IMG/VR virus record: IMGVR_UViG_2513237361_000013
Length of the DNA: 36,955 bases
Direction: 5' to 3' (one strand)
Origin: a virus
Lineage: Duplodnaviria; Heunggongvirae; Uroviricota; Caudoviricetes
Part shown: piece by piece, positions 263 through 36,660 of the stretch
How the letters are laid out: every line of letters begins with the position of its first letter
Numbering within the stretch: the first letter of the stretch is position 1
Program-made: the position numbers and the translations under genes
Notes under the pieces: generated by a model
The model's database searches: none
The model's input: only the letters and a program-made list of their open reading frames with translations
What the model was told of the DNA's origin: nothing

Positions 263-537
263 AAGCATACTCACGATAATATCCGCGTAGGCGCGATCAC
301 TTTCGTCAAACCGATCGTTATCATGATAATTGAGGTAAAGAATGGCGCAAAGTAGCGTTGTGAAAATTTAAACGTCTCAACGCCTCCTTGAATTTCTCAC
401 CCCACATGAAAAAGAACCAAACAGCCCGCTTTGAGCGAAAAACGAACTATGATATTAGCAAGAAAGCATCACTGTTAATATTCGAACAATTAATGCTCAG
501 CTATTTCTCTATTATTTACAATCAGAAAGGACGTGTA

Positions 538-948
538 ATGGGTAAGGTTGATGAACTAAAGATGAAATATCCGGACGCGAATGCCTGGCAAATGGGCGAC
601 AGCCCTGAACTGGCTAACGAGCTTGCAGCACTTATAGAAAAAGGGATTAAAACGGCCTCCTGTGGCTCTTATGCCTCTTATCAGAAGGAAGAATTTGCCC
701 CAAGGATTGGGAGCTATAACATCATCCTTGACGGCCAGGATGTACCGGTATGCGTGACCAGGCTGGTGTCGATGCAACTGGTGTGTTTTTGTGATGTTAC
801 TGCCGAGTTAGCTCGCAAGGAAGGTGAAGGCGATTTGAGCCTTGAATATTGGCAGAGAGAGCATCAACGATTTTTCACCCAGGAAGGTCATTTTTCTGAA
901 GATATGGAGTTGATTATGGAAGAGTTTGAAGTTGTTGAGGTTCTGTAA
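538..948 (+). CDS. ASCH/PUA-like domain protein (hypothetical)
   Basis: ORF 388..948; preferred start is ATG 538 with AAAGGA 6 nt upstream. G.KTAS and ELARKEGEGDLSLEYW motifs resemble ASCH domains (YqfB-like). Function is inferred from motif memory only. Confidence 0.5.
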   Translation: MGKVDELKMKYPDANAWQMGDSPELANELAALIEKGIKTASCGSYASYQKEEFAPRIGSYNIILDGQDVPVCVTRLVSMQLVCFCDVTAELARKEGEGDLSLEYWQREHQRFFTQEGHFSEDMELIMEEFEVVEVL

Positions 949-1155
949 GATGAGATAAACGAGCTGACGTTATATCAATTGGCATTTATAACAATGTCCG
1001 CACCTGACACATAGCGGATCTAAATATTAACGAGCGTCCACCAAATAGAGGAATGTCTAATAGGAACCTGGCAGTAGAACTGTCATCTGACTGACCAACC
1101 GACCCCAAACAACTAAGAGGTTTTGATAACTTATTTTGATAACCGTTAGCAAACT

Positions 1156-1188
1156 AACATAAAACAACGGGCGTGTTATACGCCCGTT
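1156..1188 (-). terminator. intrinsic terminator downstream of the icd fragment
   Basis: Perfect 9-bp stem AACGGGCGT / ACGCCCGTT (1166-1174 and 1180-1188) with a 5-nt loop, followed on the minus strand by GTTTTATGTT. Confidence 0.5.
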
Positions 1189-1211
1189 ACAATATTTAAC
1201 ACATGTAGTAA

Positions 1212-1373
1212 TTACATGTTCTTGATGATCGTATCACCAAACTCTGAACATTTCAGCAGCTTAGCGCCTTCCATCAGACGTTCGAAGTCATAGGTTACGG
1301 TCTTAGCGTTAATTGCGCCTTCCATACCTTTAACAATCAGGTCTGCGGCTTCAGTCCAGCCCATATGGCGCAG
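1212..1373 (-). pseudogene. icd: orphan 3-prime-terminal fragment of isocitrate dehydrogenase gene (prophage attachment-site duplication, icdC-like)
   Basis: Minus strand translates [54 protein letters not shown], the Icd C-terminus. Homology stops abruptly near 1373, where the sequence becomes AT-rich non-coding. e14 and phage 21 are known to integrate in icd. Confidence 0.85.
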
Positions 1374-1565
1374 CAGTATATAAAAACATTAAGTTCAATT
1401 CATTGATATTTAATGATAAAAATTATTTTATTGTCTTTTTATTAGCCAAAATCAACTTTATTCAACCGTTTGATTTCATTGACGTTCGTTTTTATTTTGG
1501 GGAAAGGTTTTATCTACCATTTATATCAAAATTACAAGCCTACATTTTATTAACATCTCAATACA

Positions 1566-1596
1566 TGTGAGGCCTTGCAGACCTTTGTGAGGCCTT
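1566..1596. repeat. 11-bp direct repeat TGTGAGGCCTT x2 (20-bp period) near the att boundary
   Basis: Identical copies at 1566-1576 and 1586-1596, about 200 bp from the icd-fragment junction. Confidence 0.4.
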
Positions 1597-1914
1597 ATGT
1601 GTCTCAGTTTTGTCCCTCTTTTTTGTACTAAAAAACATAGTAATTGAGGATAAACCTCATGCTATTTTCGCTTATATGCCTCTAAAGGCATGGCACTTAA
1701 ATAGATAAAAGCACCACAAAATCATAAAAAAACCACACAGTAAAACCGCAATATGAAACAATAACAGATAATTAAACCAAAAACAGATAGCGCATTGTGA
1801 TAATCATTCAATACTAAACAAAATATAAACAGTGGAGCAATATGTAATTGACTCATTAAGTTAGATATAAAAAATACATATTCAATCATTAAAACGATTG
1901 AATGGAGAACTTTT

Positions 1915-2868
1915 ATGCGGGCGAAACTTCTGGGAATAGTCCTGACAACCCCTATTGCGATCAACTCTTTTGCTTCTACCGAGACTTTATCGTTTACTCC
2001 TGACAACATAAATGCGGACATTAGTCTTGGAACTCTGAGCGGAAAAACAAAAGAGCGTGTTTATCTAGCCGAAGAAGGAAGCCGAAAAGTCAGTCAACTT
2101 GACTGGAAATTCAATAACGCTGCAATTATTAAAGGTGCAATTAATTGGGATTTGATGCCTCAGATATCTATCGGGGCTGCTGGTTGGACAACACTCGGCA
2201 GCCGAGGTGGCAATATGGTCGATCAGGACTGGATGGATTCCAGTAACCCCGGAACCTGGACGGATGAAAGTAGACATCCTGATACACAACTCAATTATGC
2301 CAACGAATTTGATCTGAATATCAAAGGCTGGCTCCTCAACGAACCCAATTACCGCCTGGGACTCATGGCCGGATATCAGGAAAGCCGTTATAGCTTTACA
2401 GCCAGAGGTGGTTCCTATATCTACAGTTCTGAGGAGGGATTCAGAGATGATATCGGCTCCTTCCCGAATGGAGAAAGAGCAATCGGCTACAAACAACGTT
2501 TTAAAATGCCCTACATTGGCTTGACTGGAAGTTATCGTTATGAAGATTTTGAGCTAGGTGGCACATTTAAATACAGCGGCTGGGTGGAATCATCTGATAA
2601 CGATGAACACTATGACCCGGGAAAAAGAATCACTTATCGCAGTAAGGTCAAAGACCAAAATTACTATTCTGTTGCAGTCAATGCAGGTTATTACGTCACA
2701 CCTAACGCAAAAGTTTATGTTGAAGGCGCATGGAATCGGGTTACGAATAAAAAAGGTAATACTTCACTTTATGATCACAATAATAACACTTCAGACTACA
2801 GCAAAAATGGAGCAGGCATAGAAAACTATAACTTCATCACTACTGCTGGTCTTAAGTACACATTTTAA
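1915..2868 (+). CDS. ompT: outer membrane protease OmpT (omptin)
   Basis: 317-aa ORF matching E. coli OmpT essentially end to end from memory (MRAKLLGIVLTTPIA...AGLKYTF). GGAG Shine-Dalgarno 8 nt upstream of the ATG. Confidence 0.95.
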   Translation: MRAKLLGIVLTTPIAINSFASTETLSFTPDNINADISLGTLSGKTKERVYLAEEGSRKVSQLDWKFNNAAIIKGAINWDLMPQISIGAAGWTTLGSRGGNMVDQDWMDSSNPGTWTDESRHPDTQLNYANEFDLNIKGWLLNEPNYRLGLMAGYQESRYSFTARGGSYIYSSEEGFRDDIGSFPNGERAIGYKQRFKMPYIGLTGSYRYEDFELGGTFKYSGWVESSDNDEHYDPGKRITYRSKVKDQNYYSVAVNAGYYVTPNAKVYVEGAWNRVTNKKGNTSLYDHNNNTSDYSKNGAGIENYNFITTAGLKYTF

Positions 2869-2886
2869 GAACGCCAACTAAAATTT

Positions 2887-2911
2887 CCCCGAGGTGAAAA
2901 TCGCCCCGGGG
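2887..2911 (-). terminator. possible weak terminator between convergent ompT and appY
   Basis: CCCCG (2887-2891) pairs with CGGGG (2907-2911) around a long loop. On the minus strand it is followed by AAATTTTAG. The structure is weak. Confidence 0.25.
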
Positions 2912-3117
2912 AATAACTAGCCATTTCAATGTAACAATTAACCCTTAAAATAAACCCAGAAGGTTATTAACTAAATCACATAGAAAACCATCAATTATAG
3001 TGTGTATAAAATAGGCGACAGCAACCCAATTACAAATTAATGGTTCCAGAATATCACATCAAAAAACACGCTATATAATATTATAATTAACATGTAGACA
3101 ACTTGTAATAAATATTA

Positions 3118-3867
3118 TCAGTCAATTGTTTTGTTTATTCCATCTGTGACGCCGATTATTTTCTCAAAATAATGAGATGGCGTGACACCATAATAATCTT
3201 TAAATGCACATATGAAATATGAAGTACTGTTATAGCCACATTTCTGGGCTACGACATTGATAGAATAAGAGTTTGAAGTTATGAGTTTTTTTGCATACCT
3301 CATCCTAGTATCTCTCAATATTTCAGTAAATGACGTTCCTTCATCCCTTAATCTTTTTTTTATTAAACTTTCACTCGTATAAATCAATTCCGCAATATCT
3401 TTTAAATGCCATTGCCGCTCAATATTAAAACTGATTATTCCAGTAATTTTACAGGTAAATGTATTTATATTTGTTAGTATAAATGAATTTACACTTTCGC
3501 GTTTTTTGAACATGGCAAGTAAGGATATACATAGTCTTTCTTTTAACCAAAGGGAGTGTGAGTCTGCTATTTTAATCCCTTCAAACAGAGAAAAAACAAG
3601 CGATAATGGAGGTTCCTCTTCAGCAATATAGCCATTCTTATCAAGAGTAAATTTGCCAGGCAACTCATTATTCACGTCGATAAAAAAGGATAAACATGTT
3701 TTCTTATCTATATCAACAATTCTTAGTTTAGAGGGGCATACTGGTAACTCTCTTCTAATTTTGTCGCTTACAATAAACAATGAATTTTTTTTGAACGAGA
3801 TAACTCTCCTGTTTATAATTAAATCAAATGATTGACAGATGAAAACTACGGAGCAAACATAATCCAT
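3118..3867 (-). CDS. appY: AraC-family transcriptional regulator AppY
   Basis: 249-aa ORF with a C-terminal AraC helix-turn-helix ([28 protein letters not shown]). N-terminus [14 protein letters not shown] and the convergent position next to ompT match the K-12 appY/ompT arrangement. EnvY cannot be fully excluded without a search. Confidence 0.75.
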
Positions 3868-7205: not shown

Positions 7206-8816
7206 TCAACTGATACTGATGCCGGCTGTTGATTTCTTCATCACGACAACAAGAAGGTCGCTGATACTGGTCGTTGGCGTCCAGTTATTTGCACCATATG
7301 AAGAAACATTGAAAGTCAGGGTGACATGGCCGTGTCCGGCAGGCATATCAATGACTGATGAAAATACCCTGCTGACATCCGTCGCGGGTTGCTGAAAGAT
7401 TTCCTGTCCGTTCTTCAGCACCTGCAGCTTACAGGTTGAATACCAGTATGACTGTTGGTTGTTGCTGTTGAAGTTTTCATGCTTACCACCGCGAAACAGA
7501 ACGGGGGGGATTACTATCTGACGGTCAAAAGCCTGGTCATCGTACACCGTGACCGTTATTGTACCGCTGGCATAACTGCTATTTCTCGGAAAGGCTTTTC
7601 CCACCGTTTTAACAATATCGCCTTCAATCTGGTTGGCTGACAGTTTTCCCAGAATCCGGCAGTTCTGATTAATCGTGACATTGTTGAGCGTCCCGGAGTT
7701 CGCGTTCACGTTACCGCTGATATCCGCATTTTTCGCCGTCAGCCGCCCGTCCGGTGTCAGGGAAAATGCCGGAGGATTACCGCCGCTGGTAATGGTGGGA
7801 GCCGTCAGATATTTCAGGAACACTTCATTCATAAATATCTGATCGCCCTGACCAACAAACATCGGCTTTGTATTGCCATTCGCAGGATTAATCATCGCAA
7901 TCCTGTCCGCCGCCAGCAGCACCTGACTCTGCATACCGTCAGGGGTATTCTCAATACCGGCACCAATACCCGCGATATAAAGGCGTCCGTCCTGCATCTG
8001 CTGCAGCTTCACAGCCCACATGCTGTTCAGGTTATTATTTGTATCAACCTGAACCTTCTGTATCTGCTGGATCGCTGCACTCTGGTCTTCCAGTTTCTTA
8101 TTGACGGTCTGCGTGATTTCATTGCTGACATCCGTAATGGACGTCCTGATTTCAGCCAGGTCAGGCGCAAGCTGACCGTTATCAATCTGCGTCCACAACT
8201 CCTGAGCCAGATGGGTTTTCCCTATCTCTCCTTTGAAAAAATCCAGATAGCCGGATGCATCATCACTCGGCTGGCCAACAGCCTCCACAAATGCCGATTT
8301 GCCAACGGTGTTCACACTGCGAATGTAAAAATAATAATCATGGCCCGGTTTGATATTGATACTAGCGGCTATCCAGTACAGCGCCGTACCAAGATAACGC
8401 GCGCTGGCTTCAACCTGCCTGATATCCGCAATCCGCTTTTCCGAGAACCAGAACTCAAACTGTACCGTCGGATCATAAACGGCAAGATGCGGCGTTGCGG
8501 TTATCTGAAAATAGCCCGGCGTCAGCTCAATCCGCGATGGCGCTGCCGGTGCGGCAATCCGGAACGATACCGACGCCGGATCCCCCTGCTGCCCCCACGC
8601 ATTTACCGCCCGGACTGTCAGCCTGTAGTTCCCCAGCGCCAGTTGCCTGAAGCGGTATGTGGTTTCCGTCGTCCTGGCCGTGCTGACCAGAAGAAATGTC
8701 CGGTGAAATGCTGGTTCTGGTGCCGGAAAGGCTGGAGATGCTGAAGGTGTTGCGAAATACCTGCCCGGTGTACAGCGGATGCATACCTCTGTCGGACCTG
8801 GAAAGAACAGTCCGTA
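7206..8816 (-). pseudogene. J: tail tip/host-specificity protein J, C-terminal portion only (5-prime truncated)
   Basis: Open frame of 537 codons closed upstream by TAA at 8817-8819. Contains lambda-J-like segments ([32 protein letters not shown]..., [40 protein letters not shown]). Full J is about 1100 aa; there is no start codon in frame between 8316 and 8816. Confidence 0.85.
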
Positions 8817-27936: not shown

Positions 27937-29247
27937 TTAAATCCGAAGTGATGTGACTCTTCCGGTCGGTTTGACAATAGGGAATTGCTTAACGATGAAA
28001 TAACCTCCGGCATCATTCGGGTGATCATTGCCAGATTTTTTATCAGGCTCCCCCTTCTCATCCCAGACCTGTTGCTCCAGAGATTCGGCATATAACGGGC
28101 AACGCTTCACATTAACTTTATAGCGACGCTCACCATTGGCATTGCAGAACATTGCATTCATTGAGTTAACGCGATCTTTTACTGGCGGGTTCGAGCTGTT
28201 CACCACAACGTTAAAACCAGCCTGCTTAAGCTGGGCTATATCCGTCGTACTTGCGTTACTTGATTTTCTGGAATCCCCGGAAGCATCTGGATAAATATAA
28301 ATTTCCCTCACTTTCCGGTAATCATTCCCATCATACAGCCAGAAGCGTTCTTTAATGATGCGGATCATATCCGGCGTATCGTAGGCATTGATGATTTCAG
28401 TTACCGCACATGGAAGCCCCAAACGCAGCACATGGACGATTCCCGCCATCTTTCCAACGTTAAAATCCATCCCAATATAAATCGGCTCCCCTGGCTGCTC
28501 CACTTCTTCGCAATTATTCAGTTTCCGGTCAAACTGATGGTAAACAGTACCACTTGTCAGGTTAGTAAACTGTCCTCGAAGATAGGCTTTAATCAGCTCT
28601 GGAGGGTATGATTCAAGAAGCGAAGGAATGTAATCTGCTGGCAGGTTCTTTTCATTATCGAAAGTAGATGCCTGCACCAGACCATACAGTGAGGCCAGCT
28701 CTGTTTTTTCACGCACGGCTTTAACAAACTGCTCGTAGACAAATTTGAATCCTTCCGGCGTGGTTGTAACGTCAATACCGTTGCGAAGTCCATCAATCTT
28801 ATAACGCATACGTGCAATTATCTTGCGCCACGCCGTTCTGGCTTTTTCCTTCGGCAAAATGTCCAGTTCATCCACCAACGCATTACCAATTTTGAAACCG
28901 ACGATCGTTTGTGGCTTCTCCATCGATCTGCAGATAGTGGTTCCCCGATACTGGCGTCCGTAATAAAAGTGAACCTCTTTATTTCCCTCATTAATTTTTA
29001 CGTTCAATCCCCAGTCAGCAGCAACTTCTTCCACTGTAGGGTAAAAAATATCGCGAATTTGGGGATACGTTGGCGCAAAATATCCCTGATTTATACCTGG
29101 ATGCTCCCAAATCCCCTTGCATATGCCGCCACACCCAACCCATGTTTTGCCCGAGCCAAAACCAGCAATATAGGCTTTAAATTTATGGGGCATTGAAAGA
29201 AATCGCGCCTGAGGCACATTAAGCGTCGGAGAGATCATCTTCATCAC
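27937..29247 (-). CDS. terminase large subunit
   Basis: 436 aa with Walker A-like GFGSGKT near the N-terminus and a nuclease-type C-terminal region. Confidence 0.9.
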   Translation of the reverse strand: MMKMISPTLNVPQARFLSMPHKFKAYIAGFGSGKTWVGCGGICKGIWEHPGINQGYFAPTYPQIRDIFYPTVEEVAADWGLNVKINEGNKEVHFYYGRQYRGTTICRSMEKPQTIVGFKIGNALVDELDILPKEKARTAWRKIIARMRYKIDGLRNGIDVTTTPEGFKFVYEQFVKAVREKTELASLYGLVQASTFDNEKNLPADYIPSLLESYPPELIKAYLRGQFTNLTSGTVYHQFDRKLNNCEEVEQPGEPIYIGMDFNVGKMAGIVHVLRLGLPCAVTEIINAYDTPDMIRIIKERFWLYDGNDYRKVREIYIYPDASGDSRKSSNASTTDIAQLKQAGFNVVVNSSNPPVKDRVNSMNAMFCNANGERRYKVNVKRCPLYAESLEQQVWDEKGEPDKKSGNDHPNDAGGYFIVKQFPIVKPTGRVTSLRI

Positions 29248-30313
29248 TCCTTACTCTGGCATCAACCACATTAATATTGATCGCCACAGGCTGGGGATGT
29301 TCATTATCTTCCACCGTTTCGATCTCTTTGCGCAGCTTCTGGTTTTCCATTCTGCGCCGTTCAATTTCCAGTTCCTGTAGCCGTTTATCTGCACATAAAG
29401 CCCCGCCAGCAGAAAACAAACGCAACAATTCACGCCGGGCGGCAGCCTTATCCTCCAGCAGGATCTCAACGCCGAATTTTCCGAATTTTGCCCCTGCATA
29501 TAATTGCCGCGCATCCCCATCAAGCAGAGTGGTATCAGCCATATAAAGCTGTCCCGTTCCCTCACCGCAGCACTTCGGGCAGTCCGGATTGGGTATGGCG
29601 TTATCAACAAAGCCGAGGCCTCCATATTCCGGTTCGGGTTTGCCATCTCTGGAAGCCTGCGCCGCTGCCTTGTCGAATTCTGCTATATCGCGCCACTGGT
29701 AGAGATGATTCTCGCCCCAGCAATAACGGCAGTTAACACGGCGAAATTGTGCAAGCTGATTGGGGTCGGCCAGGACAATAGCCATCAACTGACTCACTAG
29801 TAAATCCAGGTCTGCGGTATAGCGTTTCTGGTACTGATTGCGGAAGTAGCTGATAGCGCGAAAAACCCTGGCATTTCTAAGCATACGACTGGCGTTGCTG
29901 TTAGCTGTCGCACCTTGCCCCTCATAACCGGCTAGTCGGTACGCCTCTGTCGGCTTTTTACCCTGAGCAACAAGCATCGCAAACTTAGCCTGCTGGTCAG
30001 AAATGCCGAATTCATCGGGACAGAACGAAAATTCCTCCGCGTCGCCCTCATTCAGGCCCGCATCGAATACTGGCTTTTTTTCCTGAGATTTTTCGTTCCG
30101 CTTTTGTGCAGTCTGCGCAGATTTTTTCTGCGCACTTTTTTGCGCAGTTTTGCACATTTCTGTCTGCGCATTTTTCGGAGTTTTTTTGATGTAACGACGG
30201 GCTGTTGCGTAATTCAGTCCCCTTGCTTCACACCATGCCACCGGAGATATACCGGAGCGGGTGTATTCAGCAATATACTCCTGCTGCAACGCCCCCCAGT
30301 CCGGTCTGCTCAT
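29219..30313 (-). CDS. terminase small subunit (P27-family-like) with N-terminal HTH and two CxxC motifs
   Basis: 364 aa. Core resembles P27-type TerS (QQAKFAMLVAQGKKPTEAYRLAGYEG...ANSNASRMLRNARV). N-terminal HTH-like VAWCEARGLNYATARRYI. CRYC and CPKCC motifs. Overlaps TerL start by 29 nt. Confidence 0.8.
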   Translation of the reverse strand: MSRPDWGALQQEYIAEYTRSGISPVAWCEARGLNYATARRYIKKTPKNAQTEMCKTAQKSAQKKSAQTAQKRNEKSQEKKPVFDAGLNEGDAEEFSFCPDEFGISDQQAKFAMLVAQGKKPTEAYRLAGYEGQGATANSNASRMLRNARVFRAISYFRNQYQKRYTADLDLLVSQLMAIVLADPNQLAQFRRVNCRYCWGENHLYQWRDIAEFDKAAAQASRDGKPEPEYGGLGFVDNAIPNPDCPKCCGEGTGQLYMADTTLLDGDARQLYAGAKFGKFGVEILLEDKAAARRELLRLFSAGGALCADKRLQELEIERRRMENQKLRKEIETVEDNEHPQPVAININVVDARVRSDEDDLSDA

Positions 30314-30316
30314 CAG

Positions 30317-30568
30317 TTAGTCCTGATTTTTATCCACCCTGAGTAGTTCGCGCAGAGCAAAGGCATCCCCTTTTCTGGCAAGCTTAAACAATGCCGCTCG
30401 TAACTCGGCTTCACCTTTCGCTCTGCCCTTACGGATGGCCGCATAAAAATCTGTCATTGCTTCCCGATTTTCTTTCAGTCGGTTCAGATCAACATCCAGA
30501 ACGTCAGCGATTTGTTGTGCAGTCATCCGGCACGCTGCCAGAGACTCGACTTTCGAATACGGAATCAT
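30317..30568 (-). CDS. small putative DNA-binding protein
   Basis: 83 aa, basic and helical (AAIRKGRAKGEAELRAALFKLARKGDAFALRELL), 3 nt upstream of TerS. Overlaps the upstream gene by 65 nt in another frame. Confidence 0.45.
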   Translation of the reverse strand: MIPYSKVESLAACRMTAQQIADVLDVDLNRLKENREAMTDFYAAIRKGRAKGEAELRAALFKLARKGDAFALRELLRVDKNQD

Positions 30569-31436
30569 TTGTCACCCCCATTGATATGCAGGGTGTCTTC
30601 TTCCTGTATTTTTCGTGAAGGATTTTTACTGCAGCGTTGTTCCAGGTGACCTGATGGTGAATGCGTTTATGGCTGGCACCCATCAGTGAGATTTTTACGC
30701 ACGACGGCGCATACATGACGGAGTAAAAACTTTTAACGTAGGTTCCGGAATCCAGATACAGCTCGGTCATTCCGCCGCTGTTTTTCTGCGTCTGTTTCTG
30801 CCCTAACTGGACAGCACCGATCGTCATAAACAATTCACCACAGCGACCGAGATTCGTGTACGTATTCACATCCTCGTTAATGCGCCCCATGAATGAGAAC
30901 GGTCGATCAACCGAACAGATAAAGCTGTTCATTGCCTTGCGTTTCACCCACGAAGCATGGCCGCCATTGTCACCAAGAAAATCCCCGCCCTGCGACATAG
31001 CGATGGAAAGAGCAGGTATTGATTCGTAGTACGCCAGCATTTCAGAAAGGATCGCATCCAGTTTCCTTATCGGAAAATAGGCCTGGTCATAGTTGCGATC
31101 CACCCGAAACTGGAACTCGTGATAATCATCATCGAGCTGAATGAAGTATTTACACCCGACCAGTTTTGCCAGGTCGAAACAGGCATTACGGGCGTAAAAA
31201 ATTGAGCGGCGGTCACAGAAATTATCGGCTTCGTCAAAACGACTGGCGATATCGGCTTTGGAAAACACCAGCACCTGTTCACCAAATTCAGCCATGTACT
31301 GATGCCGTGTCTTATCTTCATCATCAACAACGATAAAAATTTTCCCGGTATAGCCAGCACGACGCAACGTCCGGTAAGTCAGAACTTTGTCCGGTCGCCC
31401 GTGAGTCAGAATAAAGGCGCAAAAATCATCACGCAT
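30504..31436 (-). CDS. GT-A-fold glycosyltransferase-like protein (putative), translationally coupled to ParB-like gene
   Basis: Start at ATG 31434-31436 (MRDDFCAFILTHGRPDK), overlapping the ParB-like stop by 8 nt with GAGGAGGAGGAA as Shine-Dalgarno. Motifs FIVVDDEDK and IQLDDDYHEF (DxD-like). No transmembrane segment. Confidence 0.55.
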   Translation of the reverse strand: MRDDFCAFILTHGRPDKVLTYRTLRRAGYTGKIFIVVDDEDKTRHQYMAEFGEQVLVFSKADIASRFDEADNFCDRRSIFYARNACFDLAKLVGCKYFIQLDDDYHEFQFRVDRNYDQAYFPIRKLDAILSEMLAYYESIPALSIAMSQGGDFLGDNGGHASWVKRKAMNSFICSVDRPFSFMGRINEDVNTYTNLGRCGELFMTIGAVQLGQKQTQKNSGGMTELYLDSGTYVKSFYSVMYAPSCVKISLMGASHKRIHHQVTWNNAAVKILHEKYRKKTPCISMGVTNDSVFESRVSGSVPDDCTTNR

Positions 31437-32220
31437 ATTCCTCCTCCTCACCACCATGCATGATCTCCACCATGCGCTGCGTCATCCGGACAAATCCATT
31501 TTCAATAGCCTGCTGATAATCAATGATCACCAGCGCCGACTCCTCGAAAAAACACTGAATTTCAGAGGGGGCGTGAGCGTAATAGTCCGCAATTCTGCTG
31601 AAATTAAACACCGTGTGACGTTCTGCCGCACACAGGAGGAATTTCTCAATATCAGGCTCAAGGGACGCCGAACGTATCCGGCTGATCAGCTCCTGAGTTT
31701 TCGTATCGTCGTACAGTTCACTGATATCCGGTTTACCGCCCGACGGCTCATAAACAGGCGTATCAATTTTCGTCGTATACGGCTCCTCCTCATTTCCTGT
31801 ACCGGGCAAAACATCCGTCAACAGTTCATCAATTTCTGTCGGGATGAAGCCTGTCAGGGAGACATCAAAATCAGCATTGATTAGGTCCGACAGCTCCATC
31901 CGCAACAGATCTTCATCCCAGCCAGCATTCATCGGCAGGCGATTATCTGCCAGGCGGTACGCCTTTTTCTGCTCATCCGTCAGGCCAGACAGAACAATGA
32001 CCGGAACAGAATCCATTTTGAGCATTTCAGCCGCCATAACACGACCGTGACCCGCAATAATTTCGCCCTTTTCGTCAATCAGCACCGGATTAGTCCAGCC
32101 GAATTGCTTAATACTTTCTACCAGTTGTGCCACCTGCTCAGTACTGTGCGTCCTGGCGTTGTGCGCATACGGTGACAATTCTTGTAATGGGCGATAGACT
32201 ATCTTTAATTTCTCGCTCAT
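31429..32220 (-). CDS. ParB N-terminal-domain (ParB/Srx-fold) protein, phage-type
   Basis: 263 aa with YRPLQELSPYAHNARTHS...ESIKQFGWTNPVLID...IIAGHGRVMAA, typical of the ParB N-terminal nuclease/NTPase fold. Confidence 0.85.
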   Translation of the reverse strand: MSEKLKIVYRPLQELSPYAHNARTHSTEQVAQLVESIKQFGWTNPVLIDEKGEIIAGHGRVMAAEMLKMDSVPVIVLSGLTDEQKKAYRLADNRLPMNAGWDEDLLRMELSDLINADFDVSLTGFIPTEIDELLTDVLPGTGNEEEPYTTKIDTPVYEPSGGKPDISELYDDTKTQELISRIRSASLEPDIEKFLLCAAERHTVFNFSRIADYYAHAPSEIQCFFEESALVIIDYQQAIENGFVRMTQRMVEIMHGGEEEEYA

Positions 32221-32357
32221 ACAGCCTTGCTTTATGAATAAAACGCACCCCAGCAGCCAGTGCTACTGGGGACGGAGGTGTTGCTGGTAAAGTTAGGTAT
32301 TGGATCAATGAGTGAGTCAACATAATATTAAACTCACAATTATAAATCAGCCATATA

Positions 32358-33814
32358 TTAGGAGCGCCAAAAAAAACCTGAAAACAATATAATAACAGGA
32401 TAAATTTCAAGGCGACCAAGAATCATAGCTATGCACATTAAACATTTTGCAATGTCATTAAGTACTCCGAATGACGATGCAGTAGCCCCAAAACCTAATC
32501 CCATATTATTAATACATGCAGCCACTGTTGCAAATGATGTAAGAAAATCATATCCCATACCATTTAACACCAGTATAAAAAACACCGTAAAGAGAGTATA
32601 AAGAAAAAAGAAACTCCATACAGACCTCATTACACGATCTGTAACTATCTTCCCTCCTACATTTACACTCAACAACGCTCTGGGATGAGAAAGCTGATTT
32701 ATCTCGTGTTTGCTTTGTTTGAAAAGTATAAGAAATCGAAGTGACTTAATTCCACCACAAGTTGAACCTATACATCCCCCAAAGAAACTTGACAACAGCA
32801 AAAATACTATCGTGTGCGTGGGCCAACTTGCATAATCCTGCGTAGCTAAACCATTATCAGTGAGCATGGAGCTGGCAAGAAAAAACGAATGAATAAAACT
32901 TCCATGCAAGTCATACATACCTATATGCCAGACCTGGAAAGAGGTAACAATGATCACCCCTAAGGCTATTAACAGAAAGAAACGAAGTTCAATATCTCTG
33001 ATTAAAGGTTTTATCGTTTTCCTGCTAATAACAATATACCAAAGAGTGAAGTTGAAAGCCGATAGCAGGGAAAAAGAACCAGCCACCAGCTCAACCAAAT
33101 AGTTATTAAAATATCCGATACTCTCGCTATGAGTTGAGAAACCACCAAGCGAAACTGTGGAAATCCCGTGACAAATAGCATCAAACAAAGGCATTCCTGC
33201 AAGTCTATAACAGACAATACAAGCAATACCTAATAAAGAATAAGTTATCCACAGTGTCCGTGACGTATCGGCCAGGCGGGGAGTGAGTTTGTCATCCTTA
33301 AATGGCCCCGGCATTTCTGACTGATAAAGCTTTGCACCACCAATACCCAATAATGGCAATACAGCAACCGCCAGAACAATAACTCCTAAACCACCTATAA
33401 AATTTAACTGTGACCGATAGTACAAATATGCCCGAGGTAATGAACTAACATCATCAATTACAGTTGCTCCTGTTGTTGTTATTCCAGAAACCCCTTCAAA
33501 CAGAGCATCAATGAACGTTAAATTAAGTTCTGAGTCAATCCATAAAGGGAATGCACTAATAACAGAAAACAAAATCCAAAACATTACAATTATAATAAAC
33601 CCATCACGGGTACGTAATTGAATGCCAGATTTCTTAGTTGTATACCACGCTCCGCCACCAATGCAAAAAAAATAACGAAAGTTATAAAGAAAACGAACAG
33701 GCTTTTTTCTTTATAAAACAATGCTACAACCATTGGTGGCAACATTGAAAGACTATAGAGCCAAACCAGGAACCCACACATATGAGTAACAACTCTTACA
33801 TGAGATGTATTCAT
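32358..33814 (-). pseudogene. trkG: Trk potassium uptake protein TrkG (TrkH family), interrupted by -1 frameshift
   Basis: N-terminal ORF (33590..33832, MNTSHVRVVTHMCGFLVWLYSLSMLPP) and C-terminal ORF (32358..33584) are joined if the 8-A run at 33665-33672 had 9 bases; the alternate frame reads CIGGGAWYTTKKSGIQLRTRDGFIIIVMFWILF into the downstream ORF. AT-rich moron, as in the Rac prophage. Confidence 0.85.
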
Positions 33815-33951
33815 ATCTAAATATTCTTTCAATTATAACCACCTTGCTGCAATATTATGATTATACTGTATAAAATTTAACTCCTCTTAGATCTTACTTC
33901 ACTGTTCCTTATGAAACAATCATCAAAATGAATCATATTGTAGTTAAGATT

Positions 33952-34380
33952 TTACTTTAAACACTGCTCGGTTATGTATTGCTGAGCACCTTCAAGTTGG
34001 GCCTGCATCATTACCAGTCGTTCCCGGAGGGTGAAATAATCCCGTTCAGCGGTGTCTGCCAGTCGGGGGGAGGCTGCATTATCCACGCCGGAGGCGGTGG
34101 TGGCTTCACGCACTGACTGACAGACTGCTTTGATGTGCAACCGACGACGACCAGCGGCAACATCATCACGCAGAGCATCATTTTCAGCTTTCGCATCAGC
34201 TAACTCCTTCGTGTATTTTGCATCGAGCGCAGCAACATCACGCTGACGCATCTGCATGTCAGTAATTGCCGCGTTCGCCAGCTTCAGTTCTCTGGCATTT
34301 TTGTCGCGCTGTTCTTTGTAGGCGATGGCGTTATCACGGTAATGATTAACACCCCATGACAGGCAGACGACCGGTTCCAT
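33952..34380 (-). pseudogene. Rz: Rz i-spanin, N-terminally truncated (transmembrane segment and RBS lost)
   Basis: 142 aa, near-identical from memory to lambda Rz from CLSW(A/G)VNHYRDNA onward, but beginning MEPVV in place of the N-terminal transmembrane segment. No Shine-Dalgarno upstream. Confidence 0.7.
34011..34196 (-). CDS. Rz1: Rz1 o-spanin lipoprotein (embedded in Rz, alternative frame)
   Basis: 61 aa with lipobox VVGC and proline-rich [15 protein letters not shown], nested in the Rz frame. Confidence 0.85.
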
Positions 34381-34687: not shown

Positions 34688-36049
34688 ATGACATTAGCAG
34701 CAATCACCATGACCGCCCCGGAAGCCGCCAGTCCTGTGCAGATGTACCGCGCGACCTACTCACCGGATGATAACAAACTGCGCCTGTATGCCGCGTCACG
34801 TCTTGACCAGGAAACGTATAAAAAAGTGCATGATGCCGGTTTCCGCTGGGCACCCAAACAGGCGCTGTTTGTCGCGCCGGCCTGGACACCGGGCCGGGAA
34901 GACGTGCTCCTCTCACTTGCCGGAGAGATTGAGGATGAAGACAGCACGCTCGCTGAACGTCAGGAAGCACGGGCGGAGCGGTTTACCGGATACAGCGGAA
35001 AGCGGGCCAGTGAATCCGCACAGGCACTTGATGAAGTGGAAAGACTGGCCGCGATGATCCCGCCCGGTCAACCCATTCTTGTGGGGCATCACAGCGAACG
35101 CCGCGCCCGTCGTGATGCGCAGCGTATTGAAAACGGCATGAAACGTGCCGTGATGCTCTTTGAACGTGCGGAATACTGGGAAGAACGCGCGCGGTCGGCA
35201 CTGCTTCACGCGAAGTATAAAGAACGTCCGGACGTTCGCTGGCGTCGTATCAAAAAAATCGAAGCTGATTTGCGCAAGGCTGAAAAGACCATCGCACAGT
35301 CGCAGAAATATCTGACGATGTGGCGGGCTGAATCGCTGGATCTGAATATGGCAAAACTCATCAGCAGTCATGACCATATCAGCGCCTGTTTCCCGCTGGA
35401 TACGTATCCGCGCCCGGCAGAAAAAAGCCAGTATGAAGGAAGTCGATCGTTATGGTCGGCCCTGGATGATGACATCATCACCACGGAGCAGGCCCGCGAA
35501 ATTGCGATCCGCTGTCATGAACGGCAGATCCAGCGTCAGCAACGCTGGGTTAACCACTATCAGAACCGCCTGATCTATGAGCGTGCCATGCTGGACGAAA
35601 GCGGCGGCGTGGTTACCCGGACACAGGATTTTGAGCCGGGCGGACAGGTTTTCAGCCGGGGCGAGTGGCTGACCATCATCCGTGTGAACAAAAGCAACGG
35701 GGCGGTGAGTTCAGTCACAACGCCAAATTACAGTTTTCTCGGGTACAGCGGCACGATGAAAGTGACGCCCGATCGCATCACGGACTACAAAGCACCATCG
35801 GCAGAAGAGGCTGCCGTCGCCAGTCAGGCCGCGAAGCGTCCGCCGGTAGTCAACTATCCGGGGGAAGGTTTCCGGGAAATGACAAAGGCACAGTGGGCCG
35901 CCCTGCCCCGGGACTGTAAGGCCGTGCGCAGTGTGGCAGAAGCAGAAGACCACGGGGCATACCGCTACCGCCGCACAATGGACAATAATTTCCGCCTGGT
36001 GAATGTGTATATCACCGACATGAAAATCACGGAAATCCCACAGAAATAA
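34688..36049 (+). CDS. large conserved hypothetical protein (plasmid/phage-associated, DUF3560-like by recollection)
   Basis: 453-aa GC-rich ORF with a coherent charged/helical sequence and no internal stops. The family assignment is from memory only. Confidence 0.65.
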   Translation: MTLAAITMTAPEAASPVQMYRATYSPDDNKLRLYAASRLDQETYKKVHDAGFRWAPKQALFVAPAWTPGREDVLLSLAGEIEDEDSTLAERQEARAERFTGYSGKRASESAQALDEVERLAAMIPPGQPILVGHHSERRARRDAQRIENGMKRAVMLFERAEYWEERARSALLHAKYKERPDVRWRRIKKIEADLRKAEKTIAQSQKYLTMWRAESLDLNMAKLISSHDHISACFPLDTYPRPAEKSQYEGSRSLWSALDDDIITTEQAREIAIRCHERQIQRQQRWVNHYQNRLIYERAMLDESGGVVTRTQDFEPGGQVFSRGEWLTIIRVNKSNGAVSSVTTPNYSFLGYSGTMKVTPDRITDYKAPSAEEAAVASQAAKRPPVVNYPGEGFREMTKAQWAALPRDCKAVRSVAEAEDHGAYRYRRTMDNNFRLVNVYITDMKITEIPQK

Positions 36050-36096
36050 GGTATATCCCCCCGGGAAAATCCCCGGGGGATGACGGAGATAATGAC

Positions 36097-36660
36097 ATGC
36101 ACAGTCAGTTAAGAGAACGTATCCGGCTGATGCGCGCAAGGCTGGATAACGCCGCGCCGGTTGCTGAAATCCGGGCTGAATCTCAGCTTTTTGTGACTCC
36201 TGCCCCGGTCTGTGATCGCCTGGTGACGCTGGCGGAGATCAGCAACCGTGATCACATTCTGGAACCCTCTGCCGGCACCGGGGCCATACTGCGGGCGATT
36301 CGGGATACCGCACCGGGGGCCATGTGTGATGCGGTGGAGATTAACAGCGGGCTGGTCCGGTATCTGCGGGACAATTTTAACGGTGTCAGGGTACAGTGTT
36401 GCGACTTCATGGAATGGCAGCCGGTGCAGTATTACAGCCGGATTATCATGAATCCGCCGTTCAGTCACGGGCAGGATATCCGGCATATCCTGCGGGCTTT
36501 TTCCCTGTTGCGTCCGGGGGGCGTGCTGGTTGCCGTCTGTCTGAACGGGCCGCGCCAGCAGGAGAAGCTGTTACCGTTTTCTGACGTCCGCGAGGAGCTG
36601 CCACGCGGCACGTTTGCTTATACCAGTGTTCCGACGATGATTATTCGTCTGCGTGCCTGA
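36097..36660 (+). CDS. small class I SAM-dependent methyltransferase with NPPF motif
   Basis: 187 aa with motif I LEPSAGTGA and motif IV NPPF, typical of amino-group (N6-A/N4-C or RsmD-like) methyltransferases. Confidence 0.8.
   Translation: MHSQLRERIRLMRARLDNAAPVAEIRAESQLFVTPAPVCDRLVTLAEISNRDHILEPSAGTGAILRAIRDTAPGAMCDAVEINSGLVRYLRDNFNGVRVQCCDFMEWQPVQYYSRIIMNPPFSHGQDIRHILRAFSLLRPGGVLVAVCLNGPRQQEKLLPFSDVREELPRGTFAYTSVPTMIIRLRA

Follow-up and report, generated by a model that had tools for sequence, protein, structure and literature searches.

A near-obligate phage gene pair of a ParB-like protein and a TAGT-family glycosyltransferase: a candidate DNA glycosylation cassette

Introduction

What does a glycosyltransferase do next to a ParB-like protein in a phage genome? 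This question is raised by a Caudoviricetes virus sequence of 36,955 nucleotides (IMG/VR record IMGVR_UViG_2513237361_000013; the whole stretch is called the window in the following), in which a ynaK-type gene encoding a ParB-like protein overlaps with a gene encoding a glycosyltransferase (GT), both on the minus strand. An earlier reading of this DNA from its letters only, the original prediction, had described the two as a coupled pair of a kind not known to be characterised. We report here that the pairing is near-obligate within the GT subfamily sampled, far beyond chance, that the constant partner of these GTs is a C-terminal module of YnaK, and that the two proteins may together glycosylate DNA.

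The pair is indeed uncharacterised: no experiments on it were found in the searchable literature (ynaK, TAGT, HHTV-2), which excluded Iyer et al. 2013 (NAR), where the TAGT family, to which the GT belongs, was reportedly defined. It is not without precedent, as the GT family is known already (TET/JBP-associated glycosyltransferases, TAGT, Pfam PF20691) and ParB genes have been noted beside phage TET/GT clusters (PMC8256090; bioRxiv 10.1101/2023.12.21.572611). Furthermore, help of a ParB-fold protein to a DNA-modifying enzyme has been demonstrated once, for the phage thymine dioxygenase 5mYOX176, which requires its ParB-like neighbour ParB176 specifically on double-stranded DNA (dsDNA) (PMC13229309). 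A survey of the ParB-CTPase fold from 2025 mentions neither glycosyltransferases nor terminases (PMC12704722). What appears to be new is the near-obligate pairing and its extension to archaeal viruses, the true partner, an unmodelled C-terminal module which also exists alone, and a branch of the family for which no encoded source of hydroxymethylpyrimidines was found.

Results

Conservation of the gene pair

The 2.1-kb region of the pair was found at near full length in 867 of 5426 complete Escherichia coli genomes (about 16%), and an identical pair is present in a prophage of enterotoxigenic E. coli (ETEC) H10407. The ParB gene is located directly 5' of the GT gene in all 80 of the closest viral loci. 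A broader query resulted in 57 GT clusters at 85% identity, 56 of them with usable upstream sequence; 55 of these dereplicated viral clusters exhibit a YnaK-type gene on the same strand at most 1 kb upstream, the sole exception being the distant TAGT of Aeromonas phage 65. With one genome per species, a YnaK-type gene was present upstream in each of the 78 assessable loci, which come from Firmicutes, Bacteroidota, several proteobacterial classes, Planctomycetota, Kiritimatiellae, Acidobacteriota, Chlorobi, Saccharibacteria and others. The pair was also detected in the Lactobacillus phages phi jlb1 and c5, in the Nocardia phage NTR1, in a Porphyromonas phage at 27% identity and in the haloarchaeal virus HHTV-2, whose gp21 matches YnaK from end to end (267 bits). 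Apart from the Porphyromonas phage, these samples reach down to about 38% identity to the query, and more distant TAGT branches lie outside them. Co-occurrence of the two genes across prophages had been named as a point to check, and they turned out to be conserved neighbours.

In one case both proteins are encoded by a single open reading frame (ORF) of 526 codons, joined as ...KRFLK-MRDDF... (L120:5296-6873, IMGVR_UViG_3300045988_163343). This is either a natural fusion or the result of a lost stop codon in a metagenomic contig.

The junction of the two genes in the window was read off the sequence (Table 1). The mechanical extent of the GT reading frame is 30504-31457. Since MRDDF forms the first residues of 32 of 32 aligned GT homologues and the PGAP/RefSeq product comprises 310 aa, the start was assigned to the ATG following the Glu codons of ynaK. 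The ynaK stop codon therefore lies inside the GT gene and 8 nt (ATGCGTGA) are common to both genes, the overlap described before. The Glu codons GAGGAGGAGGAA stop 1 nt short of the GT start codon and contain a GGAGG 3 or 6 nt in front of it, so that their suggested second use as Shine-Dalgarno sequence is plausible. An overlap of 4-29 nt is seen in each of the 11 annotated relatives that were examined, which would fit translational coupling.

In the Rac prophage of E. coli K-12 (locus NC_000913.3 1425377-1425980) the GT, terminase and head genes are deleted. Of the ParB gene only an N-terminal stub of 87 aa, the K-12 gene ynaK, is left there, and it abuts ydaY. Thereby, the suggestion that ynaK and ydaY are remnants of the pair applies to ynaK only; ydaY was rejected as a GT remnant, as it is located between the tail tube and tape-measure genes in intact relatives.

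The glycosyltransferase

The GT matches the TAGT profile with 122.1 bits (cutoff 27.5) over positions 4-205 of 205, and PF20691 is carried by all GT homologues listed. Furthermore, the protein belongs to PHROG 842 (348 bits), and RefSeq and UniRef name it 'GREB1-related protein' in E. coli. Structure prediction with AlphaFold2 gave the GT-A fold (Rossmann-like, Fringe-like) that had been supposed, with a predicted local distance difference test (pLDDT) score above 90 in the N-terminal half; much of the C-terminal half is poor, possibly due to a shallow alignment. The best matches among predicted viral structures (BFVD) were TAGT-domain phage proteins (E 4e-23), followed remotely by a T-even-type beta-glucosyl-HMC-alpha-glucosyltransferase (E 5e-5, TM about 0.45).

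The DxD-like motifs noticed earlier correspond to D102-D103-D104. These residues are invariant in 32 close homologues, and in distant ones D102 and D103 remain invariant and D104 nearly so. In three GT alignments R14, D102-D104, E188-D189 (followed by V) and H260-H261 were kept down to 21-27% identity. The active-site residues agree with the R...DDD...ED pattern of phage 5-hydroxymethylcytosine (5hmC) glycosyltransferases and of JGT, the base-J glucosyltransferase of trypanosomes, described as R...DDD...ED(Y/F) for phage GT-A enzymes glycosylating 5hmC and for JGT (bioRxiv 10.1101/2023.12.21.572611).

No hydrophobic segment was detected in the GT (maximum 19-residue Kyte-Doolittle mean 1.1), which is consistent with a cytoplasmic protein as originally proposed. 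Its C-terminal half is basic (+8). In the long GT homologues tested, the additional domain is a methyltransferase or a sulfotransferase, or TAGT is present in tandem; fusions to ParB, which had been expected among them, were not seen in this set. Membership in a defence or anti-defence system was rejected as well, since the GT matches no PADLOC or anti-defence family and PADLOC recognised in YnaK only the ParB domain of a methyltransferase model.

YnaK and its C-terminal module

YnaK consists of an N-terminal ParB/Srx domain, an acidic linker and a C-terminal helical module. The N-domain matches the PF02195 profile and exhibits the ParB/Srx fold. Residues 3-141 match PHROG 498, annotated 'DNA methyltransferase' (174 bits), and residues 10-144 match PADLOC MTase_II (131 bits); by these matches its closest relative is the ParB domain found in fusions with phage DNA methyltransferases, and both are of one subtype. 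Its box II reads IIAGHGR, compared to IIAGERR in Noc, with His-Gly replacing the canonical Glu-Arg. The protein has a net charge of about -25 and a pI of 4.5. A canonical partition or nuclease ParB was rejected for YnaK because of this acidity, the divergent box II, and the lack of a helix-turn-helix (HTH) domain in the Pfam search and of parA in the annotated prophage; TIGR00180 scored 38 bits with a cutoff of 58.

The linker contains the motif PYTTKIDTPVYEPSG, in its full form PYTxKIDTPVYEPS (core YTxKIxxPxYEP), in which Y148, T149, K151, P155, Y157 and P159 are invariant among close relatives. The motif is retained in HHTV-2, c5, jlb1 and NTR1 and in GT partners from Vibrio and metagenomes that lack the ParB domain. 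For the C-terminal module no Pfam match was found (ParB_N is the only one in YnaK), nor any relative in the PDB by sequence or fold.

In 4 viral clusters and 4 genome loci the gene 5' of the GT encodes only the motif and the C-module. A search with such a 139-aa ParB-less protein revealed dozens of stand-alone copies of 120-200 aa containing no Pfam domain, several of them on contigs of 50-300 kb; in large phages they are located 5' of the TAGT gene. The GT had been described as paired with a ParB-like protein. As judged from these comparisons, it is the C-module of YnaK, comprising motif and helical domain, that is the constant partner in this TAGT subfamily, and the ParB domain is a frequent but dispensable addition. 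Being dispensable in several lineages, it cannot provide chemistry without which the reaction would fail.

Genomic position and accessory genes

The pair lies between trkG and the terminase, as had been stated: trkG is found upstream, and a 69-aa ORF, the terminase small (TerS) and large subunit (TerL) genes and then the portal and head genes follow downstream. GC content is 33-41% across trkG and 48-50% in the pair. A strong terminator-like hairpin between trkG and ynaK probably ends the AT-rich trkG insert.

The cassette is a portable two-gene unit adjoining packaging genes, usually just 5' of them. In small phages it is usually located directly 5' of the terminase genes. With seven TerL queries, TerL was detected downstream in 24 of the 57 viral clusters; Pfam revealed it in 9 of 10 other cases tested. 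At least four different TerL families are represented. Four of five distinct Pfam-labelled loci show the order ParB-TAGT-(epimerase)-TerS-TerL-portal; in the fifth (L090) the pair adjoins the portal gene. In phage c5, which is complete with 31.8 kb and carries no annotated integrase or lysogeny repressor, the pair represents the first genes after cos. The terminase, portal and capsid families downstream of the cassette vary widely. In large phages, module and TAGT are found among genes for DNA polymerase B, gyrase/topoisomerase, and ThyA/DHFR or ThyX, and are also accompanied by UDP-glucose dehydrogenase, epimerases, deacetylases or a cytidylyltransferase.

Relatives of the pair carry an NDP-sugar epimerase/dehydratase, a class-I methyltransferase or a radical-SAM enzyme beside or inside it. 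Together with the GT fusions, these sugar and tailoring genes point to a tailored glycan and recall the 'diverse glycan' DNA hypermodification clusters. The accessory loci noted (L135:924-1901; L091:3506-5454; L253:3418-4380; L249:17837-20316) include a radical-SAM gene between the two genes, an epimerase gene between GT and TerS, and genes for a GDP-mannose-4,6-dehydratase-like protein and a methyltransferase upstream of the pair. In one relative four GT2 genes follow the capsid gene.

Discussion

A proposed ParB-assisted DNA glycosylation cassette

We propose that the pair is a late-expressed, ParB-assisted two-subunit DNA glycosylation cassette, a proposal whose chances we judge to be about even. 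The two genes would be translated together. The GT would bind an NDP-sugar with its DDD (Mn2+) site, assisted by R14 and E188/D189, and move the sugar to a macromolecular acceptor, the likeliest being the phage's own dsDNA after replication and before or during packaging. The YnaK C-module with its YTxKIxxPxYEP motif would dock the GT, and the ParB/Srx N-domain could, depending on nucleotide, activate the GT on dsDNA or guide it there, in the way that ParB176 serves 5mYOX176. The resulting DNA might be protected from restriction or from other defences against DNA when the phage enters its next host. The basic C-terminal half of the GT and the acidic YnaK would suit a complex of the two and/or DNA binding by the GT. 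Besides the family membership and active site of the GT, its coupling to YnaK and the location before TerS/TerL, a link to DNA is favoured by the methyltransferase-fusion subtype of the YnaK N-domain, by the ParB176 precedent and by the replication and nucleotide-metabolism genes around the pairs of large phages. What we infer here is that the two proteins form a complex, that DNA is their target and that the ParB domain serves as activator.

The acceptor is the critical point. The only ones known for the TAGT family are 5hmC and 5-hydroxymethyluracil (5hmU). Several observations weigh against DNA as the target. Neither a TET/JBP enzyme (5mYOX) nor a thymidylate-synthase-like hydroxymethylase or C5-methyltransferase was found in the fully annotated ETEC H10407 prophage, in the complete phage c5 or within 10 kb in six Pfam-labelled contexts, a result that rests on annotations and sampled Pfam scans and not on an exhaustive TET/JBP scan of all loci. 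As no enzyme making them was found, 5hmC and 5hmU are not expected as acceptors in the small phages examined. All three parts of YnaK are strongly acidic and none contains a DNA-binding domain recognisable by Pfam, the C-terminal halves of both AlphaFold2 models are of low confidence, and we know of no precedent for direct glycosylation of canonical DNA. In addition, the animal TAGT homologue GREB1 glycosylates a protein and not DNA (PMC7968844).

For this branch 'TET-associated' and 'beta-glucosyl-HMC-alpha-glucosyltransferase' are family or transferred names and not functions. The latter label is attached to PHROG 842 and to many RefSeq phage annotations; as the small phages examined yielded no 5hmC pathway, it is very probably wrong as the name of a function. 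About 65% of the GT-containing contigs in the survey of phage GTs had no neighbouring gene for such a base-modifying enzyme and were set aside by its authors (bioRxiv 10.1101/2023.12.21.572611). ThyA or ThyX is encoded a few kb from the pair only in two large-phage contexts. One 303-kb ENA scaffold (L255) encodes a 319-aa protein of the Thymidylat_synt family (14955-15914) and DHFR about 4 kb from a ParB-less module and TAGT. If this protein is a hydroxymethylase, that lineage would have the classical acceptor.

A more specific version of the proposal is that glycosylation is TET-independent, the sugar being put directly on a canonical base, on the backbone or on a DNA end at packaging. A nucleotide switch of the ParB fold, acting via the adaptor domain, would activate or position the GT. 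We consider this version unlikely; if true, it would represent an undescribed DNA modification chemistry in temperate phages of many bacterial phyla, in those of haloarchaea and in about one of six sequenced E. coli strains.

Alternatively, it might be that the GT glycosylates a protein, either YnaK itself or a virion or packaging protein of the same late operon, a possibility that we hold to be doubtful but the strongest of the alternatives. GREB1, a TAGT-domain protein that O-GlcNAcylates a protein (PMC7968844), argues for it, as does the failure to find a hydroxymethylpyrimidine source in the small phages examined (annotation, sampled Pfam). The cassette adjoins head and packaging genes, with four extra GT2 genes after the capsid gene in one relative, and methyl- and sulfotransferase tailoring domains are also typical of protein and cell-surface glycans. 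However, no virion or packaging candidate is conserved. As the terminase, portal and capsid families vary, YnaK, the only universally co-occurring protein, is the only conserved protein candidate. The most attractive protein target would be the invariant Tyr or Thr of its YTxKIxxPxYEP motif, modified in a glycogenin-like manner, since these hydroxyl residues belong to the most conserved short motif of YnaK and lie within an acidic linker predicted to be disordered, as is typical of a substrate or docking peptide. This is opposed by the large-phage pairs, which are located among replication and nucleotide-metabolism genes and not among structural ones, and by the subtype of the ParB N-domain, which is the one fused to DNA methyltransferases. 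Moreover, the purpose of a glycosylated ParB-like protein is not apparent.

It is quite improbable that the GT acts on a small molecule or RNA, such as a nucleotide, a defence signal or a tRNA base, with YnaK as nucleotide-binding regulatory subunit and a role in counter-defence or metabolic takeover. ParB folds do bind ATP, CTP or GTP and are fused to RNA-related domains (PMC12704722), and the acceptor is otherwise unexplained; however, no characterised member of the TAGT family has a small-molecule substrate, the N-domain of YnaK is dispensable in several lineages and the GT matches no PADLOC or anti-defence family.

Finally, that the two are unrelated neighbours, a ParB-like nuclease or partition protein and a moron GT altering the host surface by Gtr-type seroconversion, is hardly credible and already contradicted by the comparative data: O-antigen is often modified by prophage glycosyltransferases, morons are known to occupy the site behind the lysis genes and the adjoining trkG, AT-rich and equipped with a terminator, is clearly one, but adjacency is essentially universal in the sampled subfamily, where the overlap is conserved and one fusion exists, the pair is found in the cos phage c5 (no annotated integrase or lysogeny repressor), in archaeal viruses and in Gram-positive phages, the GT is soluble without a flippase or membrane partner, YnaK shows no ParA, HTH or parS-type architecture and stays below the TIGR00180 cutoff, and the GC content of the pair matches that of the late operon.

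Relation to known systems

With the TAGT family as known from phage 5hmC GTs and JGT, the GT shares the profile match, the GT-A fold, the R...DDD...ED pattern and the phage origin, and some relatives of the pair also have sugar epimerases or tailoring enzymes as neighbours. It differs in that the small temperate phages examined were not found to encode a 5mYOX, a thymidylate-synthase-type hydroxymethylase or a C5-methyltransferase alongside it, and in that this subfamily has an obligate YnaK-type partner, which the TAGT of Aeromonas phage 65 lacks. The T-even beta-glucosyl-HMC-alpha-glucosyltransferase exhibits a remote structural likeness and shares the PHROG 842 cluster, but this enzyme extends glucosyl-5hmC, and no 5hmC pathway was found in the Rac-type prophage or in c5.

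ParB176 comprises an N-terminal nucleotide-binding domain and a C-terminal domain (CTD), both needed for activation, but no DNA-binding domain (PMC13229309). In both systems the enzyme is thus encoded beside a ParB-like protein with N-domain and CTD and no recognisable DNA-binding domain. In contrast to the iron/2-oxoglutarate-dependent dioxygenase there, the enzyme here is a glycosyltransferase, and the ParB N-domain of YnaK is dispensable in some lineages. The ParB-DNA methyltransferase fusions (PHROG 498, MTase_II; PMC12704722) are most similar to YnaK residues 3-144, whereas here the GT is a separate, coupled protein that would be reached via an adaptor module.

GREB1 contains a homologous glycosyltransferase domain but is a multidomain cytoplasmic protein of 1949 aa that is reported to O-GlcNAcylate the oestrogen receptor, with no ParB partner or phage context (PMC7968844). 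Seroconverting GTs of the Gtr type are membrane-associated GT2 enzymes with flippase or membrane partners; the GT here is soluble and has no such annotated neighbours. The ParB of canonical ParABS systems has a GERRxRA box II with a catalytic Glu, an HTH domain and ParA, all of which YnaK lacks.

The TAGT family is known to decorate hydroxymethylated bases in the DNA of phages and trypanosomes. The GT represents a large and very widespread branch of it in small phages, in which no enzyme able to make these bases was found, always with one specific partner protein. If the acceptor is on DNA, this would be a new kind of modification that bears on restriction evasion, sequencing artefacts and enzyme tools. 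With an acceptor on protein, a family of 'DNA glycosyltransferases' would work on phage proteins as well, like GREB1 in animals. The pair would give a second, tractable example, in E. coli, of a ParB-fold protein serving as cofactor of a modifying enzyme, and the function name 'beta-glucosyl-HMC-alpha-glucosyltransferase', which is spreading through phage annotations, would be corrected.

Other features of the window

Table 1. Positions of the gene pair, its parts and further features in the window
Feature	Positions	Strand	Details and basis
ynaK-type (ParB-like) gene	31429-32220	-	263 aa, C-terminus ...HGGEEEEYA, then stop
ParB/Srx N-domain, aa 1-135	31816-32220	-	alignment to Noc/ParB structures; pLDDT 80-93
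Acidic linker, predicted disordered, with conserved motif PYTTKIDTPVYEPSG	31711-31815	-	alignment; pLDDT below 50
C-terminal helical module, aa 171-263	31432-31710	-	FLLxAAERHTVFNF...IADYYAHA...SALVIIDY...AIENGF
Coupling junction	31429-31449	-	read off sequence; GAGGAGGAGGAA 31438-31449, ATG 31434-31436, TGA 31429-31431
TAGT-family GT-A glycosyltransferase ('GREB1-related protein')	30504-31436	-	310 aa, soluble
D102-D103-D104 codons (LDDDY), DxD metal/NDP-sugar motif	31125-31133	-	invariant in 32 close homologues
Terminator-like hairpin between trkG and ynaK	32248-32271	-	consensus scan; 10-bp stem, 7 G-C pairs, T-rich tail
trkG	32358-33832	-	upstream of pair, frameshifted here
69-aa ORF between GT and TerS	30317-30526	-	PHROG 309 'terminase small subunit', E 8e-23; PGAP coding sequence
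TerS	29219-30313	-	364 aa, directly downstream of 69-aa ORF; Pfam Terminase_2, PHROG 51, PGAP for terminase genes
TerL	27937-29247	-	Pfam Terminase_2, PHROG 51, PGAP for terminase genes
AraC-type regulator before second pair	9936-10667	+	
PAPS-reductase/PP-loop + DUF3440 protein	11063-12289	+	408 aa, weak BrxP/DndC similarity
ParB-like protein	12274-12927	+	217 aa, PHROG 2159, overlaps PAPS-reductase/DUF3440 gene
ORF after second pair	12943-13611	+	222 aa, no family match

The 69-aa ORF matches the middle of the PHROG 309 terminase-small-subunit profile. A C-terminal tail of about 23 aa in the E. coli GT, missing in most homologues, overlaps this ORF by 23 nt. The trkG gene is split into ORFs of 408 aa and 80 aa. 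As one base is missing at the end of an A7 run compared to the trkG of ETEC H10407 (99.7% identical), it is frameshifted at about 33671, which is due either to a pseudogene or to a sequencing error.

A second pair of a ParB-fold protein and an enzyme, mentioned in the original prediction, is present at 11063-12927 and presumably resembles IbrA/IbrB of E. coli. It lies in a stretch of about 7 kb between a truncated tail-tip gene J (7206-8315) and the tail gene L (15320-16018), and may therefore be an insertion and no part of the same phage.

On the plus strand (34688-36660), a 453-aa DUF3560 protein and a small class-I methyltransferase of 187 aa are encoded with a GC content of 55-60%. These genes occupy the expected holin/endolysin site just beyond Rz (33952-34380) and have the appearance of foreign DNA inserted among the lysis genes. 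At the left end of the window (388-3867), genes encoding an ASCH-domain protein (388-948), OmpT (1915-2868) and an AraC-type regulator (3118-3867, minus strand) adjoin tail-fibre fragments.

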